This document shows, in pieces, positions 24,571 to 52,122 of a stretch of 64,000 nucleotides of DNA (position 1 is the stretch's first letter; each line of letters opens with the position of its first letter). Below the pieces are notes generated by a model that did not search any database, was not told the origin of the DNA, and was given only the letters and a program-made list of their open reading frames with translations. Source of the stretch: a virus. The DNA is taken from positions 96,709 through 160,708 of the IMG/VR virus record IMGVR_UViG_3300009709_000003. One strand, 5' to 3'. The translations under genes and the position numbers were made by a program.

Positions 24571-25776
24571 ATGATTGATCAAAATTTTGCAGATTTCATA
24601 CGTCTGGCACCCAAAGCTGATTTGCATCAGCATCTCGGTGGCTCTATTCGTTTGAGCACAATATTGGATCTGGCTGAACGTAATCGTATAAAACTGCCCT
24701 ATCAAACTATAGATGGGCTACAACAGAATGTATTTAAGCGACAATATGACTCATTGGCAGAGTACTTAGAATGTTTCAAATACACCAGTCTGGTAAGTCA
24801 AACCGGAGAAGCTCTTACTCGCATCGGATACGAATCCGTAGTTGACAATTATGCAGATGGAGTTACCCACCTAGAACTTAGATTTGCACCACATTTGCAC
24901 GTTTCTCATAAAGATGGCGTTATAGATGCAATCAAATCAGTGTATGAGGGGATGAAATTAGCTGCAGATGAGATAAACGCGTCGAATCCAAAAATACCAT
25001 TTAACTTTGGTATTATATGTATTGCCATGCGACACGTAACTCCAGAGAGTAGTCCATACTTTCATAGACTTGGCACGACACTAACTCTACAGGAAGCTTC
25101 CTTAAATTTGGTCCATACCGCCACATATCTCAAGTCAAGGAAACTTTACAATGTGGTTGGCTTTGATTTGGCGGGTCCTGAAAATACATTTCCTGCTAAA
25201 ACGCATGCAAAGGCGTTTAGACATGCTTTTGAAAGTTTTCTTGGGACCACCGTGCACGCCGGAGAGGCATACGGGCCAGAATCTATTTATCAAGCAATCA
25301 CCGATCTCTGTACAACCCGCATTGGGCATGGAACAAACCTATTGCGCACAGACATGATTAAAAAGTTCTCTAAACAAGAAGATAAACAATCCTATGTAGA
25401 CGGATTGGTAGAGACCCTATCTAACAGGCGTATTCCTATAGAGATATGTTTGACCAGCAATATGATGGTAAATCCTGTAATGTGGGATAACCCTACCACT
25501 CATCCAATGAAAAATTTTATGGATAAGGGTCTAGCTTGCGTGTTGGCTACAGATAACAGAACAGTATGCAACACTACTCTAAGTAAAGAGTTCATGTTGG
25601 CTAAGGAAACATTTAACTTGTCTCTACAAGATGTAAAGAAACTTGTAATTCGAGGATTTAAACACGGATTTTACGCCGAACCCTATGTAGAAAAACGGGA
25701 CTACGTGCGAAAAGTTATCGATGTTTATGAAGATTTGGAACTGAAATATTTTGGTGTGGTAAGTCCACGATATTAA
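24571..25776 (+). CDS. add: adenosine deaminase family protein
   Basis: PKADLHQHLGGS, LELRFAP, GFDLAGPE, TVHAGE, RIGHG, EICLTSN, ATDN; start at 24571 overlaps the upstream ORF. Confidence 0.92.
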   Translation: MIDQNFADFIRLAPKADLHQHLGGSIRLSTILDLAERNRIKLPYQTIDGLQQNVFKRQYDSLAEYLECFKYTSLVSQTGEALTRIGYESVVDNYADGVTHLELRFAPHLHVSHKDGVIDAIKSVYEGMKLAADEINASNPKIPFNFGIICIAMRHVTPESSPYFHRLGTTLTLQEASLNLVHTATYLKSRKLYNVVGFDLAGPENTFPAKTHAKAFRHAFESFLGTTVHAGEAYGPESIYQAITDLCTTRIGHGTNLLRTDMIKKFSKQEDKQSYVDGLVETLSNRRIPIEICLTSNMMVNPVMWDNPTTHPMKNFMDKGLACVLATDNRTVCNTTLSKEFMLAKETFNLSLQDVKKLVIRGFKHGFYAEPYVEKRDYVRKVIDVYEDLELKYFGVVSPRY

Positions 25777-25938
25777 TCAAACTTTCCAGGTAACACTGAC
25801 TGGATGTGCGTCTAGCACCCGTTTAGCCTCCTTCTTACATTTAGGACAAACGGTATTAGACTTATAATCTTTCAGAGGCCGGTCCTCAGTAAATTGCTGT
25901 TTACACTTATCATTTGTGCATTCATAACTATATCGCAT
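25777..25938 (-). CDS. FmdB-like zinc ribbon protein (53 aa, not in ORF track)
   Basis: MRYSYECTNDKC...F...VCPKC...AKRVL. Confidence 0.7.
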   Translation of the reverse strand: MRYSYECTNDKCKQQFTEDRPLKDYKSNTVCPKCKKEAKRVLDAHPVSVTWKV

Positions 25939-26123
25939 GACTGTCTCCTGTCATTCTATTAAACTTGCCCGTGGCCATAGTGTGCACCAACTTAAGAGTC
26001 CAAAGACTCATAGGACAAGGAATTGTATCATTGTCCGCAAATTTTTTATTCCAATTTGGGATAAGCTCCATAATTAGAGCATTCTTTTCAGCAGTGCCAT
26101 TATCAATGGCTTGTTGAATCTCA

Positions 26124-30802: not shown

Positions 30803-30804
30803 AA

Positions 30805-31188
30805 TTATTCTTTTGTAGTTTGTTCCAACAATTTTACCAAATCATATACCATAGATTTCGCAGAAAGATACAGACTGTTGGCAAGAGAGTATTCACGCCC
30901 ATACAAATATGTACGCAAATAACAAACTAAATCTAAAGCCTCCTGCAATGAATCAATCAGTTGGTCACGACCATTGCCGGGTTGAAGGTGCACACCATGC
31001 TTTCTAACACCTTCCTTATCTCTAGCTTTCATGATTTCAATGGTGTGATTGAATGTTTCAATACTATGTTGTATACCACCAACATGTTTCATATCTGCTA
31101 TGACGTCATCAATAACCAAATCCCAAGAATGCGGATTATCATTTTTGGTTGGTGGCTGTTGTTCCGTGATTAATTCTTGTGTATTCAT
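30805..31188 (-). CDS. all-alpha NTP pyrophosphohydrolase (MazG-superfamily)-like protein
   Basis: RDKEGVRKHG..L...NGRDQLIDSLQEALDLVCYL acidic helix pattern. Confidence 0.5.
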   Translation of the reverse strand: MNTQELITEQQPPTKNDNPHSWDLVIDDVIADMKHVGGIQHSIETFNHTIEIMKARDKEGVRKHGVHLQPGNGRDQLIDSLQEALDLVCYLRTYLYGREYSLANSLYLSAKSMVYDLVKLLEQTTKE

Positions 31189-31868
31189 GCTAGGTTACTC
31201 ATCTTTGCCGGATTGAAATAATCGTATTCCGGAGGACTTACCACTTGTCCTTGTCGTTTTTTCCAGTTGGCCAGATCTTCGAACTGGTCTCGCAGCCATT
31301 CGTATTGGTTCTCGCAAAGACTTTTAATCGTTTTTGGGAACTTCGGGTTTATTTCGGCCATACGAATCAAAACTTTACCGGTCATCGTGGCGTCGTGGAT
31401 GGCGCGGTGTGCACCTAGATACTCAAATCCAAACTTATCGGCCGCGTTGATAAGTTTCTTTCCCTTCGACATTTTATAGAATTTACGATATAAAACTAGT
31501 ACGTCTATCACTGGTTTAGATGGAAACTTATATCCTGCAGCTTCCAATTGTCTACCAAGAATACGACGGTCGAATTCGTAATTGTAGGCGGCAATGTAAT
31601 CAGCATATTGCAGTATGCTTACAATTGTAGCTGCATAATGCTCAAATGGTTTTGAGTCTGCGACGTCTTGATTCGATATATTATGAATCGCGGTAGCTGA
31701 TGCCGGAATAGGAATCGTCGGCTTTACGAATTCCCCGTATTCGGTAACAAGTTCTCCATTTTCAAATATGGAGAACCCAAATTCGCAAATTTCATCCGTG
31801 CTTGTTAGTCCGGTGGTTTCCGTATCAAATACTACAATTCTTTTATTTAGGTAATCAGGCTTGGCCAT
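31185..31868 (-). CDS. dnaQ: DnaQ-like 3'-5' exonuclease (Pol III epsilon-like)
   Basis: FDTETTGL, AYNYEFD, HRAIHDA. Confidence 0.92.
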   Translation of the reverse strand: MAKPDYLNKRIVVFDTETTGLTSTDEICEFGFSIFENGELVTEYGEFVKPTIPIPASATAIHNISNQDVADSKPFEHYAATIVSILQYADYIAAYNYEFDRRILGRQLEAAGYKFPSKPVIDVLVLYRKFYKMSKGKKLINAADKFGFEYLGAHRAIHDATMTGKVLIRMAEINPKFPKTIKSLCENQYEWLRDQFEDLANWKKRQGQVVSPPEYDYFNPAKMSNLA

Positions 31869-31874
31869 TATATT

Positions 31875-32387: not shown

Positions 32388-35300
32388 TTAGACATGTTCA
32401 TTTCCGGTGTTCAAAATAATTTTAAATCCATTATCGTGCTCGTCTGCGACTCGCTCAATACTAGCGGGACTCATCAGCACACTACCCATCTCCAGTAAAT
32501 GTTTTTCTCCAAATTTACGTAACTTTGAAGGTTCACCACCGAAAGATTTTACAATATCGACCGCTTTATTAGCGTCATTGATTAGGAGACCAAATACTGG
32601 AATGCCATTCATAAGAGGGATCACTTGCTTTACCCGTAAGGCATACACAGATGGGTCAAACTTATCTGTTGCTACCGTACATTCAATAGCAAACATTTGT
32701 CCTTCAGTAAGGATACCCTCTAAAGCATTACACTGTGGAGACCATACCATTATTCTATAAGTTGTGTACAAATCACTTATCCCAAATGAAATATAAGGAT
32801 CGCCACGCTTGGTGATGGCATGTTTCACATAATCAACCATGCCAAATAGCAGCAGCAAATCACCAACCACACATTCCTCAACCATAGACGGTGTAACTAC
32901 CTGATGTGATTGTACTTCAATAAAATTTGCCAACCTTTGATAAACAGCTGCGGGGTGTCCGGTGATGTAAGAGTTCAACACTTCGCGTTCATGCTGCTGT
33001 CGCTTGATATCATCAAATTCGTTGCCACGTAGTGCACATTGTGTAAGGATCACCAAAGGTGGGACCTTTGACCCATCGAAAGATTTATTGCGCTTTTTAG
33101 CGAAATCGCATATAATACTCAGGTTGTCCAACTTATCGCGATCAGTAATGCTAACATCCCATCGAAATGCGCCAGCTTTAACCAAATTCTCCTTAGCTTT
33201 TTTATTGACAGATGGCATACGCTGACAAAACTCAACAAATGAAGTAAACTTACCATTCGCGGCTCGTTCTTCGATAATAGCTTGAGCCGCCTTACCTACA
33301 CCTTTAATGGCAGAAAGTCCCATATAAAGGACATTGTCACTCCCTACGGTGTATGTGTTGTTTGATTCATTGGCGTGTGGGGGTACGATCTGCACACCTT
33401 TACGTTGAATGTTCTTAATAATATCAGCAGCGCGCTCTTTTTTGTCCGTGTTACGATCTAACAAAGCCGCATAGTAATGTAGCGGGTAATGTGCTTCCAA
33501 ATAAGCGGTAATATACGTAATGCGTCCGTACGAGGCACTGTGACTACTATTCCAAAGGTATCTAGCGTAGCCGGTCAATCGACCGATCAATTCATCTACC
33601 CAAACTTCTTTAGTGCGTGGTTGACCATTTTGGGGTTGCCAATTGGCAGGTAGATCTACCTTAGGATTGGCAAGAACTCCAGCACGAAACTTTGCGAGCT
33701 GTGCATTTACAACATCTGCGTTCTTTTTACCGATACCAGCACGGAACTTATCCGCGTCTGTGCCAGAAAAACCAGCCAAAATGCGCGACATCGCCATGGC
33801 ACCTTCTTGATAGATGATGGCTCCGTAAGTAGGTGCCAAAACCTCATCCATAAGAGGATGCCAACTTTCAACAAGCTCCCTACCGTGTCTACGATTTACA
33901 TATGATGCAGTTGCTCCAGATTCCAAAGGACCTGGTCGATACAGAGCATTAAGAGCTGCAACATGGTGAAAATTAGCAGGTTTAAGCTGCTTCGCCAATT
34001 TCCTATACCCGGGGGAGTCCAACTGAAATAAAGATACATACTCCCCAGTGCCTACCAAATCCATAGATGGTTCATCATCGTATGGCAGGTCATGCATATT
34101 GGTGGTGACGCCTGCACGATCAAATGCATCTTGAATAATATCTAAGGTTTTAACACCAAGCATATCTAGTTTAAGCAAACCAAGTACACCACAGTCTGCC
34201 ATGTCATACTGAATGCCTAGAATACCGGTATTTGATGGCAGGATGGGTGAGATGTCCTCAAGAGGATCATTCGAAATAACAACACCTGCAGCATGGAAAC
34301 CAATATTTTTCGCTAAGTCGATTAGAACTTCAGCATTGTCTAGCCAACCATCCCATTCAGCGATTTGACGCTTCGCATCAGCTGGAATATCGTCTATGGT
34401 TTGAGCGGCATGTGGAATCAGCTTACGAATAGCACGATTCTCTGAAAATGGTATATTAAGAATACGACCAACGTTATCTAACGCTGCAAGGACGCCCAAA
34501 GTTTGGAACGTGGCAATCTGCGCTGTGCTGTTGACGCCATATTTTTCTGCGATATGGGCCAACACAGAAGGACGACCATCTTGAGAAATATCAGTATCGA
34601 TATCTGGAAGGTCCTTACGTCCTTCATTGATGAATCGCTCAAACGGCAAATCCCAACGGATTGGGTCCAATTCTGTAATACCAAGAAGATAACATACTAA
34701 GGAACCGCCTGCAGAACCACGACCTGCAGCCTTTGGCAACCTTTTAGATACCATGAAGTCAACAATTTCTTTAATGATCAAGAAGTAACTTGAAAACTTC
34801 TTGGACTCCATCATTGTCAATTCTACTTCCAGTCGATCCACGTATACTTGATTCTCGTGTAGATTTTTACGGATCAACCCGGCATGTGCTTCTTCTCGTA
34901 GCAGTGCAGCGGACTCTGCTATAGACAGATTCCTACCACCCTCATCCTTGAAGTTAGGAATAATGAAACTATTATTTACAACGTTGTAAGGCTCGATAGA
35001 GTTCGCGATATGCACAGAGTTGTCGTAAGCTTCTTGTGGTAGAGCCAAAGCCGCCATTTCGTCCTTGCTCTTAAAATAGTGTTGATCTGATCCATGCATG
35101 TCTAAATTATATTTATTAATCTGCAAGGCTACCAGATGTGCGGTTGCATGGGATTGCAGAGTGTAATGTACCGCATTGGTTGCCACTAAAGGCAGATTAT
35201 GCTTTTTTGAGAGAACTTGAGAATTCTCCAAATATATAGCTTCTTGAGAAGCGAAATCTCCTTTTAGGAGATGTTTGTATATCTCGATGTAAACGGGAGA

Positions 35301-35873
35301 TAATGCTTTTTTGAGATAAATTAAAGCCGCGTCGAATTCATTGTAAGGCACTTCTTGTGGAACCAGGATTATGACGTCGCGCGCTGTAAGAATGTCTTGC
35401 CCATGAAGACCAACCTTAGATTTACTCAGTGGCTCCACATGTGCTTTTGTATTAAGACGAACAAGTTGCTTGTATCCATTGGAGTTTTTAGCTATGACGG
35501 TTATTCGAAACGAGCCACCATCCAACAAAACTTCAAAATTAGTACCGACAATAGGTTTTATGCCTGCAGCTTCACAATCTTTAATAAAAGATGGAGCCCC
35601 ACACAACAGATCATAGTCTGTCTTAGCAAGATATTCATATCCCATTGCCTTTGATAGTGGAATAAGATCTTCGGTTTTGCAAATGCCCTTTAAAAGGGAC
35701 ATGTGGGTGTGAACACGCAAATGCACAAAGTCTGTGCTAATTTCCTCATTTACGTTACCACAAGATTGACAAATCCAAGTTGAAATCTCTGGTTCGTAAA
35801 CGTGATCAGGATGACTACAGCCGCAATCAAAACCACTCTCATCTTCTTGATTAGTCACTTGACTCGGCTCCAC
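32388..35873 (-). CDS. dnaE: DNA polymerase III alpha subunit (family C)
   Basis: PHP FVHLRVHT; GRGSAGGSLVCYLLGIT; FERFIN; PDIDTD; HAAGVVI; KLDMLG; RPGP; C-terminal OB fold. Confidence 0.97.
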   Translation of the reverse strand: MEPSQVTNQEDESGFDCGCSHPDHVYEPEISTWICQSCGNVNEEISTDFVHLRVHTHMSLLKGICKTEDLIPLSKAMGYEYLAKTDYDLLCGAPSFIKDCEAAGIKPIVGTNFEVLLDGGSFRITVIAKNSNGYKQLVRLNTKAHVEPLSKSKVGLHGQDILTARDVIILVPQEVPYNEFDAALIYLKKALSPVYIEIYKHLLKGDFASQEAIYLENSQVLSKKHNLPLVATNAVHYTLQSHATAHLVALQINKYNLDMHGSDQHYFKSKDEMAALALPQEAYDNSVHIANSIEPYNVVNNSFIIPNFKDEGGRNLSIAESAALLREEAHAGLIRKNLHENQVYVDRLEVELTMMESKKFSSYFLIIKEIVDFMVSKRLPKAAGRGSAGGSLVCYLLGITELDPIRWDLPFERFINEGRKDLPDIDTDISQDGRPSVLAHIAEKYGVNSTAQIATFQTLGVLAALDNVGRILNIPFSENRAIRKLIPHAAQTIDDIPADAKRQIAEWDGWLDNAEVLIDLAKNIGFHAAGVVISNDPLEDISPILPSNTGILGIQYDMADCGVLGLLKLDMLGVKTLDIIQDAFDRAGVTTNMHDLPYDDEPSMDLVGTGEYVSLFQLDSPGYRKLAKQLKPANFHHVAALNALYRPGPLESGATASYVNRRHGRELVESWHPLMDEVLAPTYGAIIYQEGAMAMSRILAGFSGTDADKFRAGIGKKNADVVNAQLAKFRAGVLANPKVDLPANWQPQNGQPRTKEVWVDELIGRLTGYARYLWNSSHSASYGRITYITAYLEAHYPLHYYAALLDRNTDKKERAADIIKNIQRKGVQIVPPHANESNNTYTVGSDNVLYMGLSAIKGVGKAAQAIIEERAANGKFTSFVEFCQRMPSVNKKAKENLVKAGAFRWDVSITDRDKLDNLSIICDFAKKRNKSFDGSKVPPLVILTQCALRGNEFDDIKRQQHEREVLNSYITGHPAAVYQRLANFIEVQSHQVVTPSMVEECVVGDLLLLFGMVDYVKHAITKRGDPYISFGISDLYTTYRIMVWSPQCNALEGILTEGQMFAIECTVATDKFDPSVYALRVKQVIPLMNGIPVFGLLINDANKAVDIVKSFGGEPSKLRKFGEKHLLEMGSVLMSPASIERVADEHDNGFKIILNTGNEHV

Positions 35874-38636: not shown

Positions 38637-38864
38637 TCATTTTTTGATCCTATCCAACCAAGTCAATTTAACACTCAAACGTTCACCAGACAACAAAGGA
38701 GTCGTAATGTCAAAATAATCACAACGTTGGCGTAATTTAACACACTCGACTATAAATTTAGCAGTTTCTTCAAAATCTTCATAGGCTCCTGGCAATCCTA
38801 TGTCAATGCCTACTGCATATGCCCACTCTATAACTTCATCAGGTGTATTCAGATCGTATTTCAT
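38637..38864 (-). CDS. hypothetical protein, ETAxxIAECxRLR paralogue family
   Basis: YDLNTPDEVIEWA...ETAKFIVECVKLR. Confidence 0.7.
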   Translation of the reverse strand: MKYDLNTPDEVIEWAYAVGIDIGLPGAYEDFEETAKFIVECVKLRQRCDYFDITTPLLSGERLSVKLTWLDRIKK

Positions 38865-40139: not shown

Positions 40140-40141
40140 AA

Positions 40142-40624
40142 TTATTGTTGCTCCGTATTTACGTTAAATCTTTTAGGATAGTTATTTGCTAACTTATTTA
40201 AGTTTGCCAAAGCATCATTCACAGCAATGCGCAATTTGCTCATGGCGTCTTGACTATCTGAGGACACCACCACCGCACCCTGGCACTCGTAATACTTTAG
40301 ATACATAGATTTACGCATATCAGTGTAGATAATAAGTGGAATATTAAATTCAGCTGCGGTAGCGATCTCAATCGGCGTGCCAACAGAAGGACTTTTAGAA
40401 GAAATGTAAGCAACCACCAAATTTGACTCTCTGAGAGCATTCATGTTTACGTTGTAAACAAATTCCACAGCCGTATTATCAATTACGGACCCAACAGTAA
40501 AAGCTTCTGCCGGGTTGTAAAACACTGTTTCGGGATTGGCGGTAAGGATGTATTCCTTTAATTTATCTTTCCAAGACTGTTTTTCATTATTGTAATCAAT
40601 AGGTCCTGCAGTATAAATAACCAT
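40142..40624 (-). CDS. nucleoside 2-deoxyribosyltransferase / dNMP N-glycosidase-like protein
   Basis: IYTAGP, YNPA, SVGTPIE (catalytic Tyr/Glu positions); start at 40624. Confidence 0.78.
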   Translation of the reverse strand: MVIYTAGPIDYNNEKQSWKDKLKEYILTANPETVFYNPAEAFTVGSVIDNTAVEFVYNVNMNALRESNLVVAYISSKSPSVGTPIEIATAAEFNIPLIIYTDMRKSMYLKYYECQGAVVVSSDSQDAMSKLRIAVNDALANLNKLANNYPKRFNVNTEQQ

Positions 40625-40625
40625 C

Positions 40626-41198
40626 TTATTTCCTAAGTCCCAACAGTTTTGCAAATTGTTTGACAGCATAACCTAAATCGTCATTTACTATCATATAGTA
40701 GGGTATACCCACCTGGTTCATGCGTAGTTCCATTTTATAATTCTCAGCTACTTGTACATCTATTTTCTTCTTAATAAAGAACTCGGCATCTTGCTCGTCA
40801 CGCATACGCAACTTAGCTCTCGACACCAAATCGGAAGCTGTAATGTTAATTACACATCCGTGCAGTTCTGTACCAACAAGCCCGTGGTTCAGAGCCCAAT
40901 CCAGTTGATCTACTGATCGTGGAAAACCATCAAGAATTATCAATTCTGCACCATGATTCCACATATACTCAATTTTTTCAAGGATTAGTGCACGTAAAAT
41001 ATCTTCCTTGGGGTATAAATACCCATTTCGCATGTGTTCAAAATCTTCTGGTGTGGATATTGCACGTACTATATCACCAGTACGAATAACCGTCATTAAC
41101 TCTTTAGATGCCTCTACTACCGCATTTACAACAGTAGATTTACCTGCTGCTGGAGGCCCATTTACAAATATGATACCCTTTTTATATCTCATGATCAA
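40626..41198 (-). CDS. adenylate-kinase-family NMP kinase
   Basis: GPPAAGKST, TGDIVR, LDGFPRS..Q. Confidence 0.9.
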   Translation of the reverse strand: MIMRYKKGIIFVNGPPAAGKSTVVNAVVEASKELMTVIRTGDIVRAISTPEDFEHMRNGYLYPKEDILRALILEKIEYMWNHGAELIILDGFPRSVDQLDWALNHGLVGTELHGCVINITASDLVSRAKLRMRDEQDAEFFIKKKIDVQVAENYKMELRMNQVGIPYYMIVNDDLGYAVKQFAKLLGLRK

Positions 41199-43861
41199 CC
41201 CATACCGTTGCCAGCTTTGTAAAAAGCCATTCTTTCTTTCAAGCTAGCGGCTTCTATCAAACGTAGATTGGAAGTAGCTTGATCGTCCGACAGAAAAATA
41301 TCAATTTTTGCATCGCTTGCACCATGACGCAATTTAGGAATAGAAATCATGCGATTACCTACCTGAGCTGAGTCATCAGTAGGACGTTGACGCGGTTTTT
41401 GAATCTCTATAAGAACATCCGCATCTTGTGCCACTTTATACGAACCACCAATTGCTTCCGAACCATGTTGATCACCTGATCGATTGCGTTGAGCTACAAC
41501 AATACACCCAAGCTGCATACCAAGCGCAACCTTATTTTTCATAATAGTTGAAGCTTCACCAATAACCTGATCCCTAGACATACCGCGCTGATCATTAGAC
41601 GCGGACACCAATTGAATGTAGTCCCAAACTACACCAGTTAGCTTATATTTAAAATGGTAGTCCTCAATGGTCGCCAAAATCTCATCAATAGTTCCATGTA
41701 CTGGTTGATAGGAGTACAACCCGGAAGTTGCAACACGTTCTATTGCATTGTGCACAATACCAACTTGGTCGTTATTTAATTGTCCCTTAATAATGGCTCG
41801 ATTAGATATGCCCGTCATGATGGACACCATGCGCAAGCCATTATCTTCTGTTGTCATTTCCTGGTTGATCCACAGCCATTTTTCACCTTTATCCATCACC
41901 AAAGGTGTAATGATGTTCATAGCCAACAAAGATTTACCAGCACCCGTAGAACCGGCAATTACCACGTCATGGCCAGGAGATATGCCGTTTATGGCTTGGC
42001 ACAAAGCGGGTAGAGTAGCGGAAAAATCTGAGCCCATAAATGCGCCACCAGATTGAATACGCTTCTCTATAGACTTAGCCAGTAGATTACTAATTTCCTC
42101 AGGAGTATTGGCTTGGGTGTAAGTAGCTTTCGACTTAGCCGTCAAGTTTTTCCTGTGTTGATCCACAACGACATTAAAATCGAGTTGTAGATTTTTTACA
42201 CGTTTCCCAAGAACTTCTGACTCTCTAAGAGCCACGCGCCGCTTGTGCAAATCTAAAACAATAGTGGTAGCGACATCAACTGCATACTTAGGTGTAATGT
42301 CTAGAATGCCAGCAACAGTATCTGTAATGGTTGGGTCAGGATGTTTTTGTACCAAATAATCTATAATGTTTTGAGGAGTATATTGATCTCTATACCGCTC
42401 ATACACATATACCGTAGACAACCAACACTTTTTGTGGTGGTCAATTGCAAAAGTTTCGTCTGAGACACCACGCGATAGCATGTTTGATAGGCCATGAGGG
42501 TCTAGAAACACATATTTCAAAACCGCTTGTTCGGCGTCCACACTAAAAAGTTCTGTCCTAGTAGCATGAATCTCAGCGACTATTTCATGTAGGGTTTCAA
42601 CGCTTAATTCCAAAGACTTAGCCAAGCGTGGCAAAATCAAATCAGTTTGTAGCGGCCCATGGTTAAAGAGCTTTGGTTTTATTGCCGTCAAAATCCCAAT
42701 TTTTTCATGGTCTGTAATATTGGCGCTATCAATATCATACGTATTATCCAGCCAAAACTCTAGAGGTAACCTACGGTCCGCCAACATTTTATCAACTGCA
42801 TTTTTACCTCCAACACGCCATACCTCATGTGGATCTATGTCCAAAGGGGGCCGTGAGATTGTTACATACTTATCATGATACCATTCCATTTGATCGACAA
42901 CTTTTAAAGATTTAGACCATCCGGTCTCATCCCCATCTAGACAAATATTGAATTTGTCTACACCGTTGCGAATAAGGGCGGCAACCTGCTCCTCGCGTAC
43001 TTCACTACCCATAATAGCTACAGCACCAAGAGCAATTGCGTCTCTAAACCCTTCAACCATAGTCACACTATTAGTCGAATTGATGGAACGATTGATCTGT
43101 GAAAAACCATAAACTACGCTTAGATCTGCTAGCGGATGAGTAGCTTTATTTCCAATGTATTTAGATGTACCATAGTGCAGATTTCCATCGGCTAACTTGG
43201 TACGGAAACCAATTACTTCATTGTGATAATTATGAATTGGATATACAACCACATTACCGAATAGGTCCTGTCTAGAAAACTCCAAATCGCGAATTTCATC
43301 CTCAGTTAACTTAATTTTCTCCAATAAAGCGTGCACCAGTGCGTCACGAGAAGGACAATAGCCAACCTTATATGGCGCTATTTGCTCTAGCGTGAACCCA
43401 GACCTGGTAAGAAAGTCCTCACGAATCTGTGGGTGACCCACAAGCCAATCATGCATAATGTCCGCAGCATACCGATTAGCATCAACGTACCGATCACGTT
43501 GAGTGGCCATACGAATGGCTTCTGGTGACTTAAACTTATCTAGATTAATATGAAACCTATTAGATAGGTGCAATACAGCTTCAATAAAAGTAAGCTTATG
43601 CCAGATCATCACCCATTTAATGATGTCTCCATAATGACCTTCTCCACCATAATCCTTGAAACGCTTACGCTCAATATCAACTTTGAATGAAGGAGTGTTT
43701 TCCTCACGAAATGGCGAATTGCACACATAGCGTGAACCGCTAGCCTCAGTGGACCACTCCACGTGCGGTAAATCTGCTTGAATAAGATCGAGAATATCTA
43801 TCTTGTCACGCAGAATGTTGCATGCACCAGGCATGTCGGTAAACAGTTTTTGGCTCGTCAC
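41195..43861 (-). CDS. fused DnaG primase-DnaB helicase
   Basis: SPFREENTPSF; TOPRIM VEGFRD...DGDETG; helicase GSTGAGKS, EMT, DYIQL, AQRNR, QDAD, KLRHG. Confidence 0.93.
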   Translation of the reverse strand: MTSQKLFTDMPGACNILRDKIDILDLIQADLPHVEWSTEASGSRYVCNSPFREENTPSFKVDIERKRFKDYGGEGHYGDIIKWVMIWHKLTFIEAVLHLSNRFHINLDKFKSPEAIRMATQRDRYVDANRYAADIMHDWLVGHPQIREDFLTRSGFTLEQIAPYKVGYCPSRDALVHALLEKIKLTEDEIRDLEFSRQDLFGNVVVYPIHNYHNEVIGFRTKLADGNLHYGTSKYIGNKATHPLADLSVVYGFSQINRSINSTNSVTMVEGFRDAIALGAVAIMGSEVREEQVAALIRNGVDKFNICLDGDETGWSKSLKVVDQMEWYHDKYVTISRPPLDIDPHEVWRVGGKNAVDKMLADRRLPLEFWLDNTYDIDSANITDHEKIGILTAIKPKLFNHGPLQTDLILPRLAKSLELSVETLHEIVAEIHATRTELFSVDAEQAVLKYVFLDPHGLSNMLSRGVSDETFAIDHHKKCWLSTVYVYERYRDQYTPQNIIDYLVQKHPDPTITDTVAGILDITPKYAVDVATTIVLDLHKRRVALRESEVLGKRVKNLQLDFNVVVDQHRKNLTAKSKATYTQANTPEEISNLLAKSIEKRIQSGGAFMGSDFSATLPALCQAINGISPGHDVVIAGSTGAGKSLLAMNIITPLVMDKGEKWLWINQEMTTEDNGLRMVSIMTGISNRAIIKGQLNNDQVGIVHNAIERVATSGLYSYQPVHGTIDEILATIEDYHFKYKLTGVVWDYIQLVSASNDQRGMSRDQVIGEASTIMKNKVALGMQLGCIVVAQRNRSGDQHGSEAIGGSYKVAQDADVLIEIQKPRQRPTDDSAQVGNRMISIPKLRHGASDAKIDIFLSDDQATSNLRLIEAASLKERMAFYKAGNGMG

Positions 43862-44790: not shown

Positions 44791-45185
44791 AATTCAACCT
44801 TCCATCTAGGTGTAAATGGAATATCTGAAGCAGACGTCTCAGTGATATTGTCAATATAATATGATTTAACATGGTTTAGTGATTGTTCAACTGCGTAAAA
44901 CAACACGCCACTTTTACCATTACGCAGTGAGTAAGGTTCCACCAATCTCTTTGTACCATTGTACTTTATATATACCATTCTGAGCCGTTGAGCCGATTTA
45001 CGAATGGTAGCAAGCTTATTGGCGGCCTCCATATATGGTTGCGTATCAGACATCTGAGTTACAGGTTCTGCCGGCGCAACATCTTTTTCCTGAATAGCAG
45101 GAAGCGTATGGTGAATACTCTGAGGAGTGATCGACGGGGTTAAACGTCGAACGGTGTCAACGATACGATCAAACAGTTTACTCAT
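44787..45185 (-). CDS. stand-alone WYL-domain protein
   Basis: IKY....RLVEPYSL......FYA.......KSYYIDNI......F.PR. Confidence 0.75.
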   Translation of the reverse strand: MSKLFDRIVDTVRRLTPSITPQSIHHTLPAIQEKDVAPAEPVTQMSDTQPYMEAANKLATIRKSAQRLRMVYIKYNGTKRLVEPYSLRNGKSGVLFYAVEQSLNHVKSYYIDNITETSASDIPFTPRWKVEF

Positions 45186-45709
45186 TTATTTACATACTCT
45201 AAATATTCGCGAGATGGTACGATACCTTGTTGACCTTGATACTTACCGTTGTATGCTGGTCCATCTCCAATGACTTCATAAAAGTAGATCTGGGCAATCC
45301 TCATATTAGAATAAACACGAATAGGATGAGATGCTACTATTTCTAATGTCCAAGTGCCACTCCATCCGATGTCTCCAAATCCAGCGGTTTGATGAATCTG
45401 TAGTCCAAGTCTACCAATCGAACTGACACCCGATAGACATGGAACATATTTCTTAGAACCAGTAGTTTCTGTAGTATAGCCCAAATATAAAACACCCTGC
45501 TCAAGTACATATCCATCATCTGGTATGGTAATAATCTCATATGGGTTGCGCGATTTTGGGTCAATTACACGCTGTGTGTAAACGGACAGCTGAGATCCTA
45601 AATGGAGATTATATGAATTGGGGTTTACTTTCGTAGGATCAAAACCCGTAATTTCGATATCACCTTTATTTACAGCCTCTGCAATTGCATTTCCACTTAG
45701 CATTGCCAT
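45182..45709 (-). CDS. dcd: dCTP deaminase
   Basis: NPNSYNLHL, SSIGRLG, AGFGDIGWSGTWTLEI, IAQ, YNGKYQGQ. Confidence 0.93.
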   Translation of the reverse strand: MAMLSGNAIAEAVNKGDIEITGFDPTKVNPNSYNLHLGSQLSVYTQRVIDPKSRNPYEIITIPDDGYVLEQGVLYLGYTTETTGSKKYVPCLSGVSSIGRLGLQIHQTAGFGDIGWSGTWTLEIVASHPIRVYSNMRIAQIYFYEVIGDGPAYNGKYQGQQGIVPSREYLEYVNK

Positions 45710-45717
45710 TTACAACC

Positions 45718-47160
45718 TCAACCTAAAACTATCGCGTTTTGTGCTATATATTGTGATCTTCTAAAATCAGCATGATTATGAAGCATCGGAACGTTATCAA
45801 CTATGTCAATCACCAAACCAACATCCTTACCAGGAAAAGAACGTACTACACGACCTATAAGTTGTCGAGCGTCTTTAGATGGGTATGCAAGAACGAGAGC
45901 GTTCAAAGAAGGTACATCTAGTCCATAAGCACCGATGTCGGATATAACAACTAAAAGTTCTTTCTTAGTAAGAGCTTGCAGAATTTCCTTACGTTCATCG
46001 GATGGGGTAGATCCGGTCAAGGTTGCAGTCACCAGATCATCCATTGCCTCAGCTAACTGCTTGCCGTAATCTAGTCGCTGATAGTATATGTAAACACTTT
46101 TACCCATATTAACTAGTTCACGAACTTGATCCGCTATAAACTCCGTACGTTCGGGGTTGTCAAGCACTTGAGTGTCTACGATGTCCTTATATGACAATTG
46201 TTCATACTGACCATACTTAGAAGGAGAGAAATCTTCATACGCCTTAACAGTGGGTGCTTCTACCATCCTAACGAACAAAGGCACATTTACGCCCAATTTA
46301 ATAAAGTCAACCTTATCACGTGTATCAATTGCTACTTGTCCGAAATTGGCTTCGATCTGCAAACTTTCAGAAGCCTCTTCGTCTGTAGACCACACATACG
46401 GTGTGGCAGTTAAACCAATATATTTTGCAGCATTCACCAACTCGCACACGCCATTCACCGAATGCGAATCAGCGCCGTGAGCTTCATCAAAGATGAACAA
46501 TTGAACAGTTGATAACCATGCACGTAATTCTGGCGCTTTACCAGTAGCTTTCTGTTTCTTCCCTACACCTAGAATAGATGATATCGACTGAATGGTTGCA
46601 ATAGTCACATCTTTAAGTGTGAATTCTCCAGAACCAACTATACCAACTCCACCAGGAACAATCTTATCCATAAAATCAAAGGTCTGGTCGAGCAAAGTAC
46701 GAGTATTGACAATTATCAAAGATACGGTCTGATATTTTTTTAACATCAAAGCCATCATCCACGTTTTACCGCTACCTGTAGATGAAACGACCATGCAATG
46801 ACTATGCGGTTCTGTACACTCAGCTGCTTCTATTTGATAGGGATGTGGCGTGCCGTTAAGTTTAATAGCCGCTAGTTGCTTACATACAGGTGTGATTTTA
46901 GGTAGTGTACCCAACAATTTATATTCAATTTGTACACTATCCAAATAGTGCGTAACCCTTTTAAGCAAACCAGTACGAAACGTGTAATCTGTACCATTCA
47001 ATAAATGATTGTACCCATCCCACTGTTTACGTTTGTACAAATAAGCAAATTTATATCCGTCAGGACGATATCTGAGTTGTTTACGCAGAGCTGTAATTAA
47101 ATTGGCATCAATCGGTCTCTGGAATTTACAAAAAACCGGCCCAATTTCAATATTTATCAT
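45718..47160 (-). CDS. superfamily 2 DExH helicase (UvsW/XPB-like)
   Basis: TGSGKT, DEAH, GLTATP, GLDVP, QLIGRVVR. Confidence 0.92.
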   Translation of the reverse strand: MINIEIGPVFCKFQRPIDANLITALRKQLRYRPDGYKFAYLYKRKQWDGYNHLLNGTDYTFRTGLLKRVTHYLDSVQIEYKLLGTLPKITPVCKQLAAIKLNGTPHPYQIEAAECTEPHSHCMVVSSTGSGKTWMMALMLKKYQTVSLIIVNTRTLLDQTFDFMDKIVPGGVGIVGSGEFTLKDVTIATIQSISSILGVGKKQKATGKAPELRAWLSTVQLFIFDEAHGADSHSVNGVCELVNAAKYIGLTATPYVWSTDEEASESLQIEANFGQVAIDTRDKVDFIKLGVNVPLFVRMVEAPTVKAYEDFSPSKYGQYEQLSYKDIVDTQVLDNPERTEFIADQVRELVNMGKSVYIYYQRLDYGKQLAEAMDDLVTATLTGSTPSDERKEILQALTKKELLVVISDIGAYGLDVPSLNALVLAYPSKDARQLIGRVVRSFPGKDVGLVIDIVDNVPMLHNHADFRRSQYIAQNAIVLG

Positions 47161-47336
47161 TTGTATTCACATGCGGTTTCATATCTGCATCACTAAATAT
47201 CGGTGATAAGTGTGGAATCACGATCAGATCACCGGATACTGTACCGAACATACCATGACGTATGATATCCAAATACAATGCTCTATTTTGTTTGTCCGCA
47301 ATCATTCTTCGCTTTTTCTTTATCCGCTTATTCATG

Positions 47337-47732
47337 CTAATACCCGTACACGTCTCTGCTTTTATTGTCTGATAAAGTCGTGGTCAACATTCGAGACGCG
47401 GAAGCGTATAGAGCATCTAATGCGTAAATAGTACGTAACAAAATTTCACTTGCAGCTTCTAGATCCTTATGCTTACTTTCTGAATACCCATCAGACTTTT
47501 CTGATTTTGCGATCTTCATAGTATAATATGCTGAATAAACAATCAAGTATAGAGAAGTAACGAAAGCTTTATTGTTAGCGTAAACCGGCAAAAGAGGCGC
47601 AATTTCTTGCGAATACGCTGTGTGGTTTGCCGAATATTGAGGTAGAGGTGATGCCAATACCGTACTATTCAGGTAAGTTGCTACTTCATGTGAAGATTTG
47701 TTCAAAACATTTAATACCGTAATGTGTTCCAT
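47337..47732 (-). CDS. hypothetical helical protein (UvsY-like position and size)
   Basis: 131-aa helical ORF between the resolvase and the SF2 helicase. Confidence 0.4.
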   Translation of the reverse strand: MEHITVLNVLNKSSHEVATYLNSTVLASPLPQYSANHTAYSQEIAPLLPVYANNKAFVTSLYLIVYSAYYTMKIAKSEKSDGYSESKHKDLEAASEILLRTIYALDALYASASRMLTTTLSDNKSRDVYGY

Positions 47733-48269
47733 TTACTTCCACAGTTCTGGTGCTGTCTTGACCATGTCTGAAAGCGACCACAAATATATAGTACTACCTT
47801 TATCTCCAGGTAATGTCATCAACTTTAAATTTGCAGCCTGTGGCGGTACCACATCTTTGGATGCTACAAATTGTTGACCAGCATGTGCAAATATTACCCA
47901 GGGTACTTTATCTGGAGCGCAGTCACGACACGATTGTTCAAACCACTGATACATCAACGGGTTAGTGGAAACTAATACCTGGTGAACACCCACGAATGTA
48001 CGTACATTCTTGCATTCGATATGGTATTTAAAAGATGGATCATTGCAAGCTAAATCACCTGCCATATCGAAACCATTTTTTAAAGCAGACCCCCCAGATT
48101 GGGGGGTGCGCCTAAACTGTGATCCATTACCCCACCAAGTCTCTAATTTTTTAGCTACAGTACGCTCAAAACTCGCTCCACGAGCACGATTTGATTTACC
48201 AACCTTGCTCTGTACTTCGTGCTTTGACGGCTCAAAAATATGTTGACAGTCGGGGCATTGTAAACGCAT
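47733..48269 (-). CDS. Holliday junction resolvase (PD-(D/E)xK, Hjc-like)
   Basis: RGASFER..A, RTPQSG, GDL, IECKN. Confidence 0.82.
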   Translation of the reverse strand: MRLQCPDCQHIFEPSKHEVQSKVGKSNRARGASFERTVAKKLETWWGNGSQFRRTPQSGGSALKNGFDMAGDLACNDPSFKYHIECKNVRTFVGVHQVLVSTNPLMYQWFEQSCRDCAPDKVPWVIFAHAGQQFVASKDVVPPQAANLKLMTLPGDKGSTIYLWSLSDMVKTAPELWK

Positions 48270-49441
48270 TATGCAGAAGCTTCTTCCTGATGAAAGGCCA
48301 TTCCACCATTTTTACCAATAGCTGCCAACACCAAAGTACGGATCTCACCCAACAAAGCAGGATTCGCACGTAGTTGCTTCAACAGATCAGTACGTCCATT
48401 AGCCTTAACTTTGCCAAATGTGAACCAAGAAGAATTCTGCGCAATAACACCAACTCTGATACCAGTTTCCATGTAATCTTTCAGAATGTCAACACCACGA
48501 TTGTAGTTTACACCTTCTTCATCCTGAAACTGGTCCGTGTACACATCAATGCTAAAATGAAATGATTCACCTGGTTGATAAGGCGGAATAACCGCAGTTT
48601 TGTTCTTCTTGATACGAATACCACAAGAAACACCAACCTTCTTTTCAACAAATTCTCCGGTGTCCATAAGCACTTGTTTCAGAATCGGTTCAGTACGCGC
48701 CACATGGAAAATATTGGAAGCGAAAAAACCGAGAGCATTACCACCAGTTGATCCTTCCTTCTCTTCATATGGCTTGGTCATAGGTTTACCACGCATCTGA
48801 TTAATGAACGCTACAATACTACCACTAGAGTTCACCAGTGGTGTAATTGCAGTTAATCCTTCAGCCATCAATTGAGCAGAGGTAGCCTTTTGACCCTGAC
48901 CAACTTCATTAGACATAACCTGCTTGGGTGTCAATGCCGGACAAGAATCCACAATAATGAAATCTACTCCATTACGCACCAACATTTTGATGGCTTCAAA
49001 ATAGTCTTCACCAGACAAAATCCGATCTGGAGTAGACTTAACCACCACAAGTTTGTCCCATTGAATACCAGCAGATTCCGCAAAGGGCCTACTTAGTGTA
49101 CCCTCCGCGTCAAGAAATGCAACCACTTTGTTGACTTCTTGCCCTTTACTATTGATTTTTGTACACCGCTGAATGTATCCAGCGATTGTCATCATAGTGA
49201 GAGTTTTACCAGATCCTTCCCATCCAGAGATATCAACAACACGACCACCAAGTAGTCCACCACAACCAAGTGCAAGGTCCATCGACAGAATGCCAGTCGA
49301 AACCACAATGGGATCAATCATAGCTGATATGTCTGCCTTGAAATACTCATTTAGCCCAGTACGCAGCGAGTCAACATCTCCATTCTGGACGATAGATATT
49401 GCATCTGCGTCCTTCTTTTTCGCTTTTTTAAAGTCTACCAT
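48269..49441 (-). CDS. recA: RecA/UvsX recombinase
   Basis: STGILSMDLALG.GG..GR, GWEGSGKT, FLDAE, IVDS, FINQMR, TGGNAL.F. Confidence 0.95.
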   Translation of the reverse strand: MVDFKKAKKKDADAISIVQNGDVDSLRTGLNEYFKADISAMIDPIVVSTGILSMDLALGCGGLLGGRVVDISGWEGSGKTLTMMTIAGYIQRCTKINSKGQEVNKVVAFLDAEGTLSRPFAESAGIQWDKLVVVKSTPDRILSGEDYFEAIKMLVRNGVDFIIVDSCPALTPKQVMSNEVGQGQKATSAQLMAEGLTAITPLVNSSGSIVAFINQMRGKPMTKPYEEKEGSTGGNALGFFASNIFHVARTEPILKQVLMDTGEFVEKKVGVSCGIRIKKNKTAVIPPYQPGESFHFSIDVYTDQFQDEEGVNYNRGVDILKDYMETGIRVGVIAQNSSWFTFGKVKANGRTDLLKQLRANPALLGEIRTLVLAAIGKNGGMAFHQEEASA

Positions 49442-49467
49442 AGTAGCCTCCTATTTTTAGGGTAAAA

Positions 49468-50715
49468 TTACGCGTTTGCGCGAACTTTCAAGGCTGCTAC
49501 CAGCTTTTGAAGCGTTGGGGCGTCGGCGTCTGCGATATTGGCACTACCAATGGTATTAACAAAAAACGGCAACAAATTCTGCACCATGCCCATTGGTCCC
49601 TGAAACTCAGGGATAACAGTGCACAACCCATTAATCTCTTGCATTAGGCTATTTTTATCGACGCTAGAGGTTGCAGTGTCATCCCCCTCAGAGCCTTCAT
49701 CCGCCTGCAATTCTTCGATCGCTTCCTTTAATGACTTCTCAGAACGTTTCAACACGTTCAAGTATGCCGGTGAATTAGCTTGGATCCAACCAAGAGTTTT
49801 ACCACTATGTTTACCAGTCGTGACCACGATATCTCGTGGGTGCGGTGGCGGTGGCACAAAAGCTGTTGCGGCCACGTTTGGTGGAAACACCGGTTGCACC
49901 TGTACAGGAACACTTACAGTAGCTGGCATGATAGATGATCCAGGCTGCTGAGTTGTTTCCATAACTGTGTGAGTCATAGCCCTAGGAACAGAAACCGGTG
50001 TAGCTTCTTCTGTGGGTTGATCTCGACCACTAGACTTGAAAAATTGTGACGTAGGCAGTGCCGTCTGCGCTTGTTGCGGCTGAAAACTATTCGGAGCTGC
50101 ATTTGGCGACGTGCCAGCAACAAAAGTAATAAGATCCTCAATAGAGGAGAAGGGGTTAAGTGCTGCAATAGCCTGAGCCATAGACGCCTTGATTTTTTCA
50201 CCCAACATCTCACGACTGATAGGCGGATCAAAAGTGGTGGCGTCCATATTGGTGGCCACATACTCAGTGTCACGACCCGTACCTTTCTTGTACACTGACC
50301 AATCGCAAGCTGTGATAGAACGCCCAGTATCGTAATACTTTTTAAACTCAGTAAAAAGCTGATTACCTTGCACGATAACTTTCACATCGTTATCAGAGTA
50401 GGACCAAACCGGCAGCAAGTGCATCATTTTGCCCTTAAAATCAACCCGCGACCCATCCTGCTTAAACTTTTCGTGCGGCAACAATTTATCCCAAAGCGGA
50501 TCCTTCATGGTGTTAAGCGGATGTTGTCGATCGGCGTAAACTGATCGATACTTACGAATGGTAACTGGTTGCCCAGCGTCATTCTGTACAGTGCAAGAGG
50601 CAATGTTGCGCATAAAAAAAGATTCTACATCTGCAGTTAGTGGCCGAACCAGGCGCTTTTTATCAGAATTAATAGTATACTGTACGTTATTGCCGTCCAT
50701 TGATGAAAAACTCAT
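49468..50715 (-). CDS. gp32-like single-stranded DNA-binding protein with C-terminal extensions
   Basis: OB-like VKVIVQG...DWSVYKKGTGRDTEY; Pro/Gln linker; GKHSGKTL...PAYL motif; directly upstream of recA. Confidence 0.6.
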   Translation of the reverse strand: MSFSSMDGNNVQYTINSDKKRLVRPLTADVESFFMRNIASCTVQNDAGQPVTIRKYRSVYADRQHPLNTMKDPLWDKLLPHEKFKQDGSRVDFKGKMMHLLPVWSYSDNDVKVIVQGNQLFTEFKKYYDTGRSITACDWSVYKKGTGRDTEYVATNMDATTFDPPISREMLGEKIKASMAQAIAALNPFSSIEDLITFVAGTSPNAAPNSFQPQQAQTALPTSQFFKSSGRDQPTEEATPVSVPRAMTHTVMETTQQPGSSIMPATVSVPVQVQPVFPPNVAATAFVPPPPHPRDIVVTTGKHSGKTLGWIQANSPAYLNVLKRSEKSLKEAIEELQADEGSEGDDTATSSVDKNSLMQEINGLCTVIPEFQGPMGMVQNLLPFFVNTIGSANIADADAPTLQKLVAALKVRANA

Positions 50716-50994
50716 GTTATGCTCCGTTAAGACTTTGTAGTTCTAGAATGATTTGGTCATATGGGTTGTTGTTGATATTTTTTATTCTATTCTCGTAAAC
50801 TCGTTCTAGTTGAATTTTAGCCAACTGTAGAACTTTATTGGTGGCTTGCAAATTGGCTTCTTCTAATGTATAGCCACTTGCAGATACTTCTATCGCAAGT
50901 GTTTCGTACCCACCTATATTGAAAGTGCGACGTATAGTAACCGTCTCTGTGTGAGGACCATCTGTTATAAACATAAAATTCTATAGTAAATCGA

Positions 50995-52122
50995 CTATTT
51001 CAAATACACATAATCATTATGGTCTGGACCTGTACCGATCATAACAACAGGTAGATTAGTAGTTACTTCCATCTTGTCTACGAAGGCCCGCACCAATGGA
51101 TGCATAGTCTCAAATTCTTTACGACCACCCCTGACCTTGTATGCTGACCAATGCAAATATTGTGGAAAATTAAGAATTAGTTTAGTTGCGCCACCAAAGT
51201 CTGCTGACTCTTTCAATAACTGCCATGACTGATCGAACACGCGACGAACTTTTTTCGTAACTGTGGTTTTCTCCCTCTCAGAGAGAGTGTCTATCATATA
51301 TTGAGGCATTTCGGCCTCTTTCCCTACCTGAGCCCAAGTTACTTCATGCTGATCTGACATGACGTCACCAGAGTAGCCAATTTGAACTCCGCTAGAATCG
51401 TAGTTATTACCCACCCGGATCGGAAACGTACGAACGTTCATATAAACGTCACCCACCATGCTAGGCAGAATGCCAAAATCAGCATATGCTTGTTGTGGGG
51501 TACAATCACGAAATGTGCAAAATGGATAATGCGTACCATGATTTAAAGACAGCGCAAAACCTTGTGACACTTCATGAAGGAAAGACCCATTCTGTAGAGC
51601 AGCACGTACCGCATACACATACTCCATAGGCGTCATGGCGTGATGCAATTCCCCCCACAATTCGACATCCTGCTGACGCATAGCTTTATCGGTATACGCA
51701 GCACCGCTACCCGACATCGTAGAGGAAATACGTAAAGTAGATTGTGTGCCACCCTGTGCCTCAGCGTCTCTGTGGCGTTGTTCAACAATCATAGCTCTGG
51801 GATGAATATTTACATCAGACAAACTGTATCCGGTTTGGCTAAGTTCTTTACGTAATTGTTGTCTTTCTATACCAGAGTTGGGACCAACCCACAGTTTAGA
51901 AACCTTAGTAGCAAGTACAGTAGATTTAAGTGCGGCTCCAGTTGGTAAGATTTTACCAACAAATTTATACTCACCATTGATGTAAGTATGTCCAGCGTTT
52001 GGATAATTCAGTGACGATAGATTAGGTGTATCAAAAATATCTGCCAGACGAGACGATGCGGCTCCTTTAGCGGAGCTGCCCCAAGCACTATCGTATATAG
52101 AATTGAACTTATTACCAATCAT
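50995..52122 (-). CDS. purZ: PurZ-like adenylosuccinate synthetase paralogue
   Basis: WGSSAKG (Ser where PurA has the catalytic Asp of GDEGKG), PNAGHT, SQG...YPFCT, RTFPIRV, TTVTKKVRR, LNFPQY in place of TKLD; 375 aa. Confidence 0.8.
   Translation of the reverse strand: MIGNKFNSIYDSAWGSSAKGAASSRLADIFDTPNLSSLNYPNAGHTYINGEYKFVGKILPTGAALKSTVLATKVSKLWVGPNSGIERQQLRKELSQTGYSLSDVNIHPRAMIVEQRHRDAEAQGGTQSTLRISSTMSGSGAAYTDKAMRQQDVELWGELHHAMTPMEYVYAVRAALQNGSFLHEVSQGFALSLNHGTHYPFCTFRDCTPQQAYADFGILPSMVGDVYMNVRTFPIRVGNNYDSSGVQIGYSGDVMSDQHEVTWAQVGKEAEMPQYMIDTLSEREKTTVTKKVRRVFDQSWQLLKESADFGGATKLILNFPQYLHWSAYKVRGGRKEFETMHPLVRAFVDKMEVTTNLPVVMIGTGPDHNDYVYLK

Follow-up and report, generated by a model that had tools for sequence, protein, structure and literature searches.

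To our knowledge, the phages with 2-aminoadenine (Z) in their DNA that have been characterised so far are all small sipho- or podoviruses, which replicate with either a PolA-type DpoZ or a PrimPol. In phiVC8 (PDB 6FM1/6TNH) and S-2L (7ODX), PurZ is an ATP-dependent, dGMP-specific synthetase, and S-2L uses in addition DatZ, an HD triphosphohydrolase, together with MazZ and PrimPol. The PrimPol of S-2L makes no distinction between A and Z, and A is kept out through the removal of dATP by DatZ (PMC8065100). A second group of phages carries PurZ0 and has neither DatZ nor MazZ; these phages use instead DutZ and DmtZ, whose genes are adjacent or fused (PMC12884076, 2026). DutZ is related to dUTPases and hydrolyses dATP and dGTP; DmtZ, from the NDT family, cleaves dAMP and is able to pass deoxyribose 5-phosphate on to Z (PMC12884076). 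NDT has also been linked to dZ phages by metaGPA (bioRxiv 10.1101/2025.10.22.683976). Here we describe a PurZ-type gene and its surroundings in the terminal 64 kb ("the window", positions 96,709 to 160,708) of a single IMG/VR record of 160,708 bp, IMGVR_UViG_3300009709_000003, which has direct terminal repeats and a CheckV completeness of 100%. The window encodes a PurZ-type synthetase, counterparts of DutZ and DmtZ, and a family-C DNA polymerase, DnaE, with a DnaQ-type exonuclease. Its gene content suggests that the virion DNA of this phage is probably largely Z-substituted and copied by the phage's own DnaE, with DnaQ. Genes in the window were called from Pfam and NCBIfam profile matches, and their coordinates are collected in Table 1.

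The 375-amino acid (aa) synthetase belongs to the adenylosuccinate synthetase superfamily, in its short, archaeal-like form. Its top NCBIfam model is PurZ (NF038379, 177.4 bits), ahead of archaeal-type PurA (138 bits) and bacterial PurA (84 bits). Among solved structures, it matches the PurZ enzymes of phiVC8 (6FM1, 107 bits) and S-2L (7ODX, 101 bits) best, and gives weaker matches to P. horikoshii PurA (90 bits, partial), a PurZ0 structure (64 bits) and E. coli PurA (27 bits). The residues that distinguish PurZ, with roles as described previously (bioRxiv 10.1101/2025.10.22.683976), are S14, T262, F295, Y298, P233, W252 and G256 in phiVC8 numbering; all seven are kept in the window enzyme, and the first six show little or no variation among 117 members of the family. 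Ser (S14 of phiVC8 PurZ) stands in place of the catalytic Asp13 of PurA, as it does in 115 of the 117 members. In the window enzyme, W, T, F and Y occupy the columns of F12, T262 (dGMP 2-amino pocket), F295 and Y298 (ATP adenine ring); the corresponding residues are W, G, K and V in E. coli PurA, and in PurZ0 the columns of F295 and Y298 hold M/F and Q. The P-loop reads GSSAKG, in contrast to GSTGKG in the PurZ of phiVC8 and S-2L, and its unusual Ala is common to active PurZ0 enzymes (GSEAKG).

In a maximum-likelihood (ML) tree of 45 sequences, the window enzyme falls within a clade supported at 100/99, and a branch supported at 97/93 parts canonical PurZ, the window clade and others from PurZ0 and E. 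coli PurA; a quick tree of 83 rows agrees. The window enzyme shares fold, family and side of the split with the PurZ of phiVC8 and S-2L. Because characterised dGMP-using enzymes are found on both sides of the PurZ/PurZ0 split (PMC12884076), the same activity is the parsimonious expectation for the window enzyme, and PurZ activity can be predicted for it with high confidence. The clade to which it belongs is separate from that of phiVC8 and S-2L, and is large, known from metagenomes only, and found in phages of 40 to 436 kb. The gene context is also different: window purZ adjoins nrdAB, with NrdB and NrdA directly upstream in transcription order, and, unlike the purZ of phiVC8 and S-2L, it has no datZ, mazZ or dpoZ as a neighbour.

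The helper enzymes of the PurZ0 phages have candidate counterparts in the window. The dUTPase has all five dUTPase motifs, and a comparison with 1,524 phage records matched it best to dUTPases from Microbacterium phages that carry PurZ0. An ML tree places it in a clade of ten, supported at 100/98, in which every member comes from a phage that carries PurZ or PurZ0; the other nine are from Wayne and Ghobes, whose DutZ enzymes are characterised, Goodman, Keanu, the cultured Bacillus phage vB_BpsS-140 described below, and genomes G003, G022, G024 and G026. Outside this clade stand E. coli Dut and four phage dUTPases whose genomes were checked and have no PurA-family gene. The Wayne DmtZ-DutZ fusion matches, by phmmer, both the window dUTPase (E 8.8e-16) and the window NDT-family protein (E 2.3e-5). 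In the latter, the DmtZ tetrad Tyr6/Asp12/Asn77/Glu103 (Ghobes numbering) is kept as Y19, D25, the N of VNMNAL and the E of GTPIEI, as it also is in the NDT counterparts of vB_BpsS-140 and G001. Its identity to DmtZ is low (~23%), and comparison by hhalign with a DmtZ profile (Ghobes, Wayne) gave a probability of 97.3% and an E of 2.2e-11, closer than the nearest solved structures, the DNPH1 dNMP N-hydrolases, which are matched weakly (E 0.016).

The arrangement of these genes recalls that of the PurZ0 phages Ghobes (Gordonia) and Wayne (Arthrobacter), in which NDT is followed by dUTPase, the two being fused in Wayne. The corresponding genes of the window lie on the same strand, with 2 nt between the end of the NDT gene and the start of the dUTPase gene, and the phage resembles Ghobes and Wayne in having neither DatZ nor MazZ. 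However, the PurZ0 phages are 42- to 45-kb actinophages with a GTP-type PurZ0, a PolA-type DpoZ and often DUF5664 (PMC12884076), whereas the window phage has a genome of 160 kb, an ATP-type PurZ, DnaE/DnaQ and no DUF5664, and adds a nucleoside monophosphate (NMP) kinase and an adenosine deaminase. The NDT and dUTPase genes are part of a tightly packed series, with overlaps of 44 nt between the NMP kinase and NDT genes and of 20 nt between the ThyX and dUTPase genes. We regard the dUTPase as the best candidate for a dATP/dGTP pyrophosphatase; like the DutZ of Wayne, it can still serve the route from dCTP deaminase through Dut to ThyX. The NMP kinase, a divergent relative of adenylate kinase, is a possible dZMP/dNMP kinase; its counterpart in vB_BpsS-140 adjoins DnaG (E 1.3e-7). 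In some other genomes with PurZ of the window's family, a dUTPase gene lies close to purZ. In G006 a homologous dUTPase lies ~600 bp from purZ. In G022 (L074:44-1926) and G024 (L072:26-1908), the purZ stop is overlapped by the gene of a 254-aa protein, of which the C-terminal 130 aa are a DutZ-clade dUTPase and the N-terminal ~110 aa have no Pfam match.

DnaE is the sole recognisable DNA polymerase of the phage, since PolA, PolB and PrimPol (PF00476, PF00136 and PF09250) have no match in the complete genome. The same genome gave no match for the families to which a DatZ would be assigned (HD, HD_3 and YfbR-like; PF01966, PF13023 and PF12917), and a hidden Markov model (HMM) of four known Z-phage DatZ proteins reached a best E of only 0.14 against all open reading frames (ORFs). 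MazG, MazG-like, DUF550 and DUF5664 (PF03819, PF12643, PF04447 and PF18909) were likewise without a match in the complete genome, with a best E of 3.1 for an HMM of four known Z-phage MazZ proteins, and no PurB was detected there. A sequence-only reading of the window had proposed Z-DNA on the strength of a PurZ-like synthetase, DnaE, DnaQ, an ADA-family deaminase, a MazG-like protein, an NDT-like protein, an NMP kinase and NrdAB, and had stated that HD-domain DatZ, PolA-type DpoZ and PrimPol are missing. The PurZ-type enzyme and the other genes of that list are recovered by Pfam and NCBIfam, with the exception of the MazG-like protein, for which neither Pfam nor the MazZ, DUF5664 and DatZ profiles gave a match in the window or the genome. 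The absences extend to all 160,708 bp: DnaE stands alone as recognisable polymerase, DatZ, which the earlier reading allowed might lie outside the window, was not found there, and the full-genome search for DatZ, MazZ and DUF550 found no canonical datZ/mazZ/dpoZ set elsewhere. The dUTPase had been overlooked, and the block holds, beyond the earlier list, ThyX, dCTP deaminase, a DnaG-DnaB fusion, UvsW, RecA and SbcCD as well.

What had been called MazG-like is probably a 127-aa helical ORF next to DnaQ. It has no MazG-like neighbour in the ESM Atlas (only unnamed viral clusters), its hhalign probabilities against MazZ, DUF5664 and DatZ are below 1%, and no homologues were found in a word-indexed protein search; its single-sequence AF2 (AlphaFold2) model is poor (pLDDT 49). 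The same hhalign comparison with MazZ, DUF5664 and DatZ covered fourteen unassigned ORFs of the window, with probabilities below 1%.

The E. coli chromosome is copied by Pol III (DnaE). When the S-2L Z-cluster alone was placed in E. coli, Z came to 3.9% of chromosomal and 12.1% of plasmid DNA, made by cellular enzymes, and the authors remarked on a relaxed specificity of most polymerases (PMC8342488). As Z in the chromosome was made by cellular enzymes, a family-C replicase is compatible with dZTP, provided that dATP is removed. The logic would be the same in S-2L and in the window phage, in that no polymerase preference for Z is needed once dATP is destroyed, although S-2L relies on DatZ, MazZ and PrimPol and the window phage has none of the three.

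A cultured relative is Bacillus phage vB_BpsS-140 (MH884512; DSM 29700), a 55-kb siphovirus of alkaliphilic Bacillus, for which our site counts and gene checks cover 37.9 kb of the genome (17185-55091). Its syntenic module comprises a PurZ-type gene, a 400-aa protein without known function, RecA, UvsW, DnaG-DnaB, adk, dut and a split DnaE, and the phage also has a DmtZ-like NDT and a DutZ-clade dUTPase, with no PolA and no HD_3. Homology to the window is clear for DnaE (E 2.7e-107) and DnaG-DnaB (E 2.8e-49). The PurZ of vB_BpsS-140 is 37% identical to that of the window and lies in another PurZ sub-branch, and the part examined has neither adenosine deaminase nor NrdAB. The authors who described this phage did not raise the possibility of a Z genome (PMC6375668). 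Among the phage DNAs tested with DraI, that of vB_BpsS-140 was reportedly the only one left uncut; PstI and BamHI failed on it too, and EcoRI cut it (PMC6483233). The 37.9 kb contain 17 DraI, 4 PstI, 3 BamHI and 19 EcoRI sites, and the uncut DraI, PstI and BamHI sites point to DNA modification in vB_BpsS-140. DNA made by PCR with dZ resists digestion by BamHI, PstI and EcoRI, fully or in part (PMC12944874). The DraI resistance of vB_BpsS-140 cannot yet be attributed to dZ specifically.

In the pathway that we propose, NrdAB would supply deoxynucleoside diphosphates (dNDPs), and the DutZ-like enzyme would convert dGTP to dGMP, feeding PurZ, and dATP to dAMP, removing the competitor of dZTP, while still providing dUMP for ThyX. 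The DmtZ-like enzyme would split dAMP into adenine and deoxyribose 5-phosphate, and would perhaps place the sugar phosphate onto free Z. PurZ would join dGMP and aspartate, using ATP, host PurB would release dZMP from the product, and the phage NMP kinase and/or host kinases would raise dZMP to dZTP. DnaE would then insert Z opposite T, discrimination being unneeded once dATP is gone. In the most speculative step, adenosine deaminase would convert (deoxy)adenosine to inosine and push purines to the guanine branch.

The deaminase might plausibly, if speculatively, help to drain adenine nucleosides. Its gene is the only plus-strand gene of the block and is flanked by minus-strand blocks, which suggests that it was acquired and is transcribed separately. 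Homologues occur in 8 of 50,697 phage records, compared with 2 of the 34 genomes of the window's PurZ family (Fisher p ~2e-5; 0.006 without the index case). In another genome, G005 (L009:3172-12690), an ADA gene heads a block that continues with DnaG, DnaB, PolA, a sigma factor, PurZ, ThyX and Tmk (thymidylate kinase); a 383-aa protein of G005 near its PurZ/PolA module (L078:1495-2646) ends in a dUTPase domain.

Several points weigh against Z-substitution by this route. The presence of Z in the DNA of this phage is predicted from its genes; the PurZ score of the synthetase lies under the curated NF038379 cut-off of 300 bits, and the enzyme is only ~35% identical to characterised ones. The outgroup of the PurZ tree was a single long-branched E. 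coli PurA, with no archaeal PurA, and the program warned of joined long branches; the dUTPase tree has only five canonical sequences. As a rule, adenosine deaminases also accept diaminopurine nucleosides as substrates, so the role of the window deaminase is ambiguous, and the window dUTPase could be an ordinary Dut with a full conventional job, given by dCTP deaminase and ThyX. Along these lines, the DNA might be canonical: the PurA-like enzyme would act in salvage or another role, dUTPase, dCTP deaminase and ThyX would form the usual dTTP route, the NDT-like protein would recycle host dNMPs, and the deaminase would serve salvage. A plausible ordinary function does exist for each helper gene, the low PurZ score is in keeping with such a role, and the occurrence of the PurZ family among large phages that are very diverse and differ in their polymerases is a sign of mobility, not of function. 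We nevertheless consider canonical DNA unlikely. The change of Asp13 to Ser and the residues of the dGMP and ATP pockets define PurZ specificity and are invariant or nearly so in the family, and the window enzyme nests among proven PurZ enzymes. Furthermore, the nearest relatives of the dUTPase and NDT are specifically DutZ and DmtZ, ahead of generic members of the two families, and in jumbo phages members of the PurZ family co-occur with HD_3 proteins and PolA.

The kit might instead work with partial effect, so that mixed A/Z DNA is packaged, enough to blunt some restriction systems. The genome has neither DatZ nor DpoZ, and expression of an incomplete Z-cluster led to no more than partial substitution in E. 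coli (PMC8342488). Cleavage of vB_BpsS-140 DNA by EcoRI, where DraI, PstI and BamHI failed (PMC6483233), is in mild discrepancy with the full or partial resistance of dZ PCR DNA to this enzyme, and speaks against full substitution in this relative or for another modification. However, PurZ0 phages reach Z-DNA through DutZ and DmtZ without DatZ, though with DpoZ (PMC12884076), and the added adenosine deaminase and the phage's own ribonucleotide reductase point to strong pool control; we judge an only partly substituted genome to be quite improbable. It is highly improbable that the product is another modified purine, or that Z nucleotides are made for purposes other than the bulk genome, such as poisoning host replication or evading nucleotide-sensing defences. 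Expression of the Z-cluster is toxic to E. coli (PMC8342488), and adenosine deaminase and NMP kinase stand outside every described Z pathway, but nothing else in the window was recognised as an enzyme that modifies purines, and genome substitution is the role of all known phage enzymes of the PurZ clade (PMC12884076). A largely Z-substituted genome copied by DnaE is the reading that we prefer for the window phage. For the lineage with the DnaE-based module as a whole, from the window phage to vB_BpsS-140, we suggest more tentatively, and with a little less than even confidence, that genomes are fully Z, made by a family-C replicase with DutZ and DmtZ in place of DatZ, and aided in the window phage by the deaminase and NMP kinase.

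Homologues of the window PurZ are widespread. A word-indexed protein search returned 2,919 PurZ homologues (E < 1e-5), many on contigs of 100-220 kb. Six of the homologues (P0123, P0124, P0125, P0128, P0129 and P0131) have lengths of 750-1200 aa and align with the 375-aa query in two or three separate stretches, as if inteins or other insertions interrupted them. The PurZ family was found in 33 IMG/VR loci, including complete genomes of 315-436 kb. Among the 34 genomes of the family, PolA is present in 16, and in 9 of the 10 complete ones, the window genome being the exception; DnaE is present in 6, PolB in 3, an NDT-like gene in 6, and HD_3 in 10, mostly jumbo phages with PolA. In seven jumbo phages of 300-436 kb (G009, G010, G013, G015, G017, G030 and G033), PolA and HD_3 lie within ~10 kb of each other and far from purZ. 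PolA and HD_3 may form a DatZ/DpoZ-like pair in the jumbo phages of the family. The four genomes with the most similar PurZ (G001, G002, G003 and G007; 54-66% identity) have few other genes in common with the window, which indicates that PurZ travels horizontally and that these genomes are not close kin of the window phage. All four share with the window genome an NDT-like gene, and G001, the closest PurZ relative, also has NrdAB beside PurZ. DnaE is split into two ORFs in G002 (59848-64522), G003 (36867-40717), G007 (103932-108933) and vB_BpsS-140 (genes 61/62); in the window it is a single ORF.

The replication and nucleotide-metabolism block at 24.5-56 kb of the window forms, the deaminase gene apart, one long minus-strand run. 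In transcription order it starts with NrdA, NrdB, the 375-aa PurA homologue, two ORFs without assignment, RecA and a PDDEXK nuclease, followed by UvsW, dCTP deaminase, two more ORFs without assignment and the DnaG-DnaB fusion. The NMP kinase, NDT-family protein, dUTPase and ThyX come next, then several ORFs without assignment, and the block ends with DnaE, DnaQ, the 127-aa ORF and SbcD/SbcC. Between purZ and recA, a 415-aa protein (49468-50715, minus strand) has a long Pro/Gln-rich middle and no family match, and is conserved with gp50 of vB_BpsS-140 (E 2.5e-8). Megablast of 22 kb against the phage collection gave no near-identical phage record. In a search of sequencing runs, a DNA match was obtained in the assembled contigs of one run, a 2017 moss metagenome from which the record probably derives, and no RNA runs containing the window sequence were listed.

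Table 1. Annotated genes of the replication and nucleotide-metabolism block, in window coordinates.
Feature	Position	Strand	Profile match or other basis
Adenosine/deoxyadenosine deaminase, Add-type (426 aa)	24496-25776	+	PF00962, 3e-63; TIGR01430, 213 bits (cut-off 216.6)
Helical ORF (127 aa)	30805..31188	-	No Pfam/NCBIfam match; only PHROGs without known function
DnaQ-type 3'-5' exonuclease	31185..31868	-	PF00929, 5e-26
DnaE, family-C DNA polymerase alpha subunit (1161 aa)	32388..35873	-	PHP, DNA_pol3_alpha, finger and HHH_6 domains
ThyX thymidylate synthase	38861..39715	-	PF02511; TIGR02170
Trimeric dUTPase, DutZ clade (147 aa); candidate dATP/dGTP/dUTP pyrophosphatase	39696..40139	-	PF00692; TIGR00576, 93.8 bits (cut-off 102.6)
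NDT-family protein, DmtZ-like (175 aa); candidate dAMP N-glycosidase / deoxyribose-5-phosphate transferase	40142..40669	-	PF05014, 44.8 bits
Adenylate-kinase-family NMP kinase (190 aa); possible dZMP/dNMP kinase	40626..41198	-	PF00406/AAA_17; TIGR01351, 46 bits (far under cut-off)
DnaG primase fused to DnaB-type helicase	41195..43861	-	Zn_ribbon_DnaG, DNAG_N, Toprim, DnaB_C
dCTP deaminase	45182..45709	-	PF22769; TIGR02274, 106 bits (cut-off 92.8)
UvsW helicase, PDDEXK nuclease, RecA	45718..49441	-	Recombination part of module; syntenic with vB_BpsS-140
PurZ-type succino-amino-deoxyadenylate synthetase (375 aa, P0001)	50995..52122	-	PF00709, E 1.9e-19; phrog_1211, 9.7e-43
NrdB	52370-53368	-	PF00268
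NrdA	53384-55648	-	ORF size; class I ribonucleotide reductase

The sequence-only reading had also suggested that the phage may exclude dATP with a non-canonical set of enzymes, and knew of no described example of such a system. An NDT-like helper is indeed present, yet the set is largely not a novel one, as NDT and the adjacent dUTPase match the DmtZ and DutZ already described in PurZ0 phages (PMC12884076). In the literature on PurZ with DnaE or polymerase III, and on aminoadenine in jumbo or huge phages, we came across no account of a Z phage that has a family-C polymerase, and to that extent the claim stands. What is new is the combination of an ATP-type PurZ, the known helpers DutZ and DmtZ, and DnaE, with a deaminase and a kinase added.

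If the reading preferred here is correct, Z-DNA would be made in this phage by a DnaE/DnaQ replisome of family C, the type that copies bacterial chromosomes, which would matter for the engineering of ZTGC cells, and it would be the first natural Z-DNA from a bacterial-type replisome. As vB_BpsS-140 is held in a public collection, the claim is directly testable in a cultured relative. The adenine purge by DutZ and DmtZ would then be a portable module, which pairs with either type of PurZ and extends beyond the PurZ0 actinophages, and PurZ itself would be far more widely spread than thought, with more than 2,900 homologues and phage contigs of up to 436 kb.

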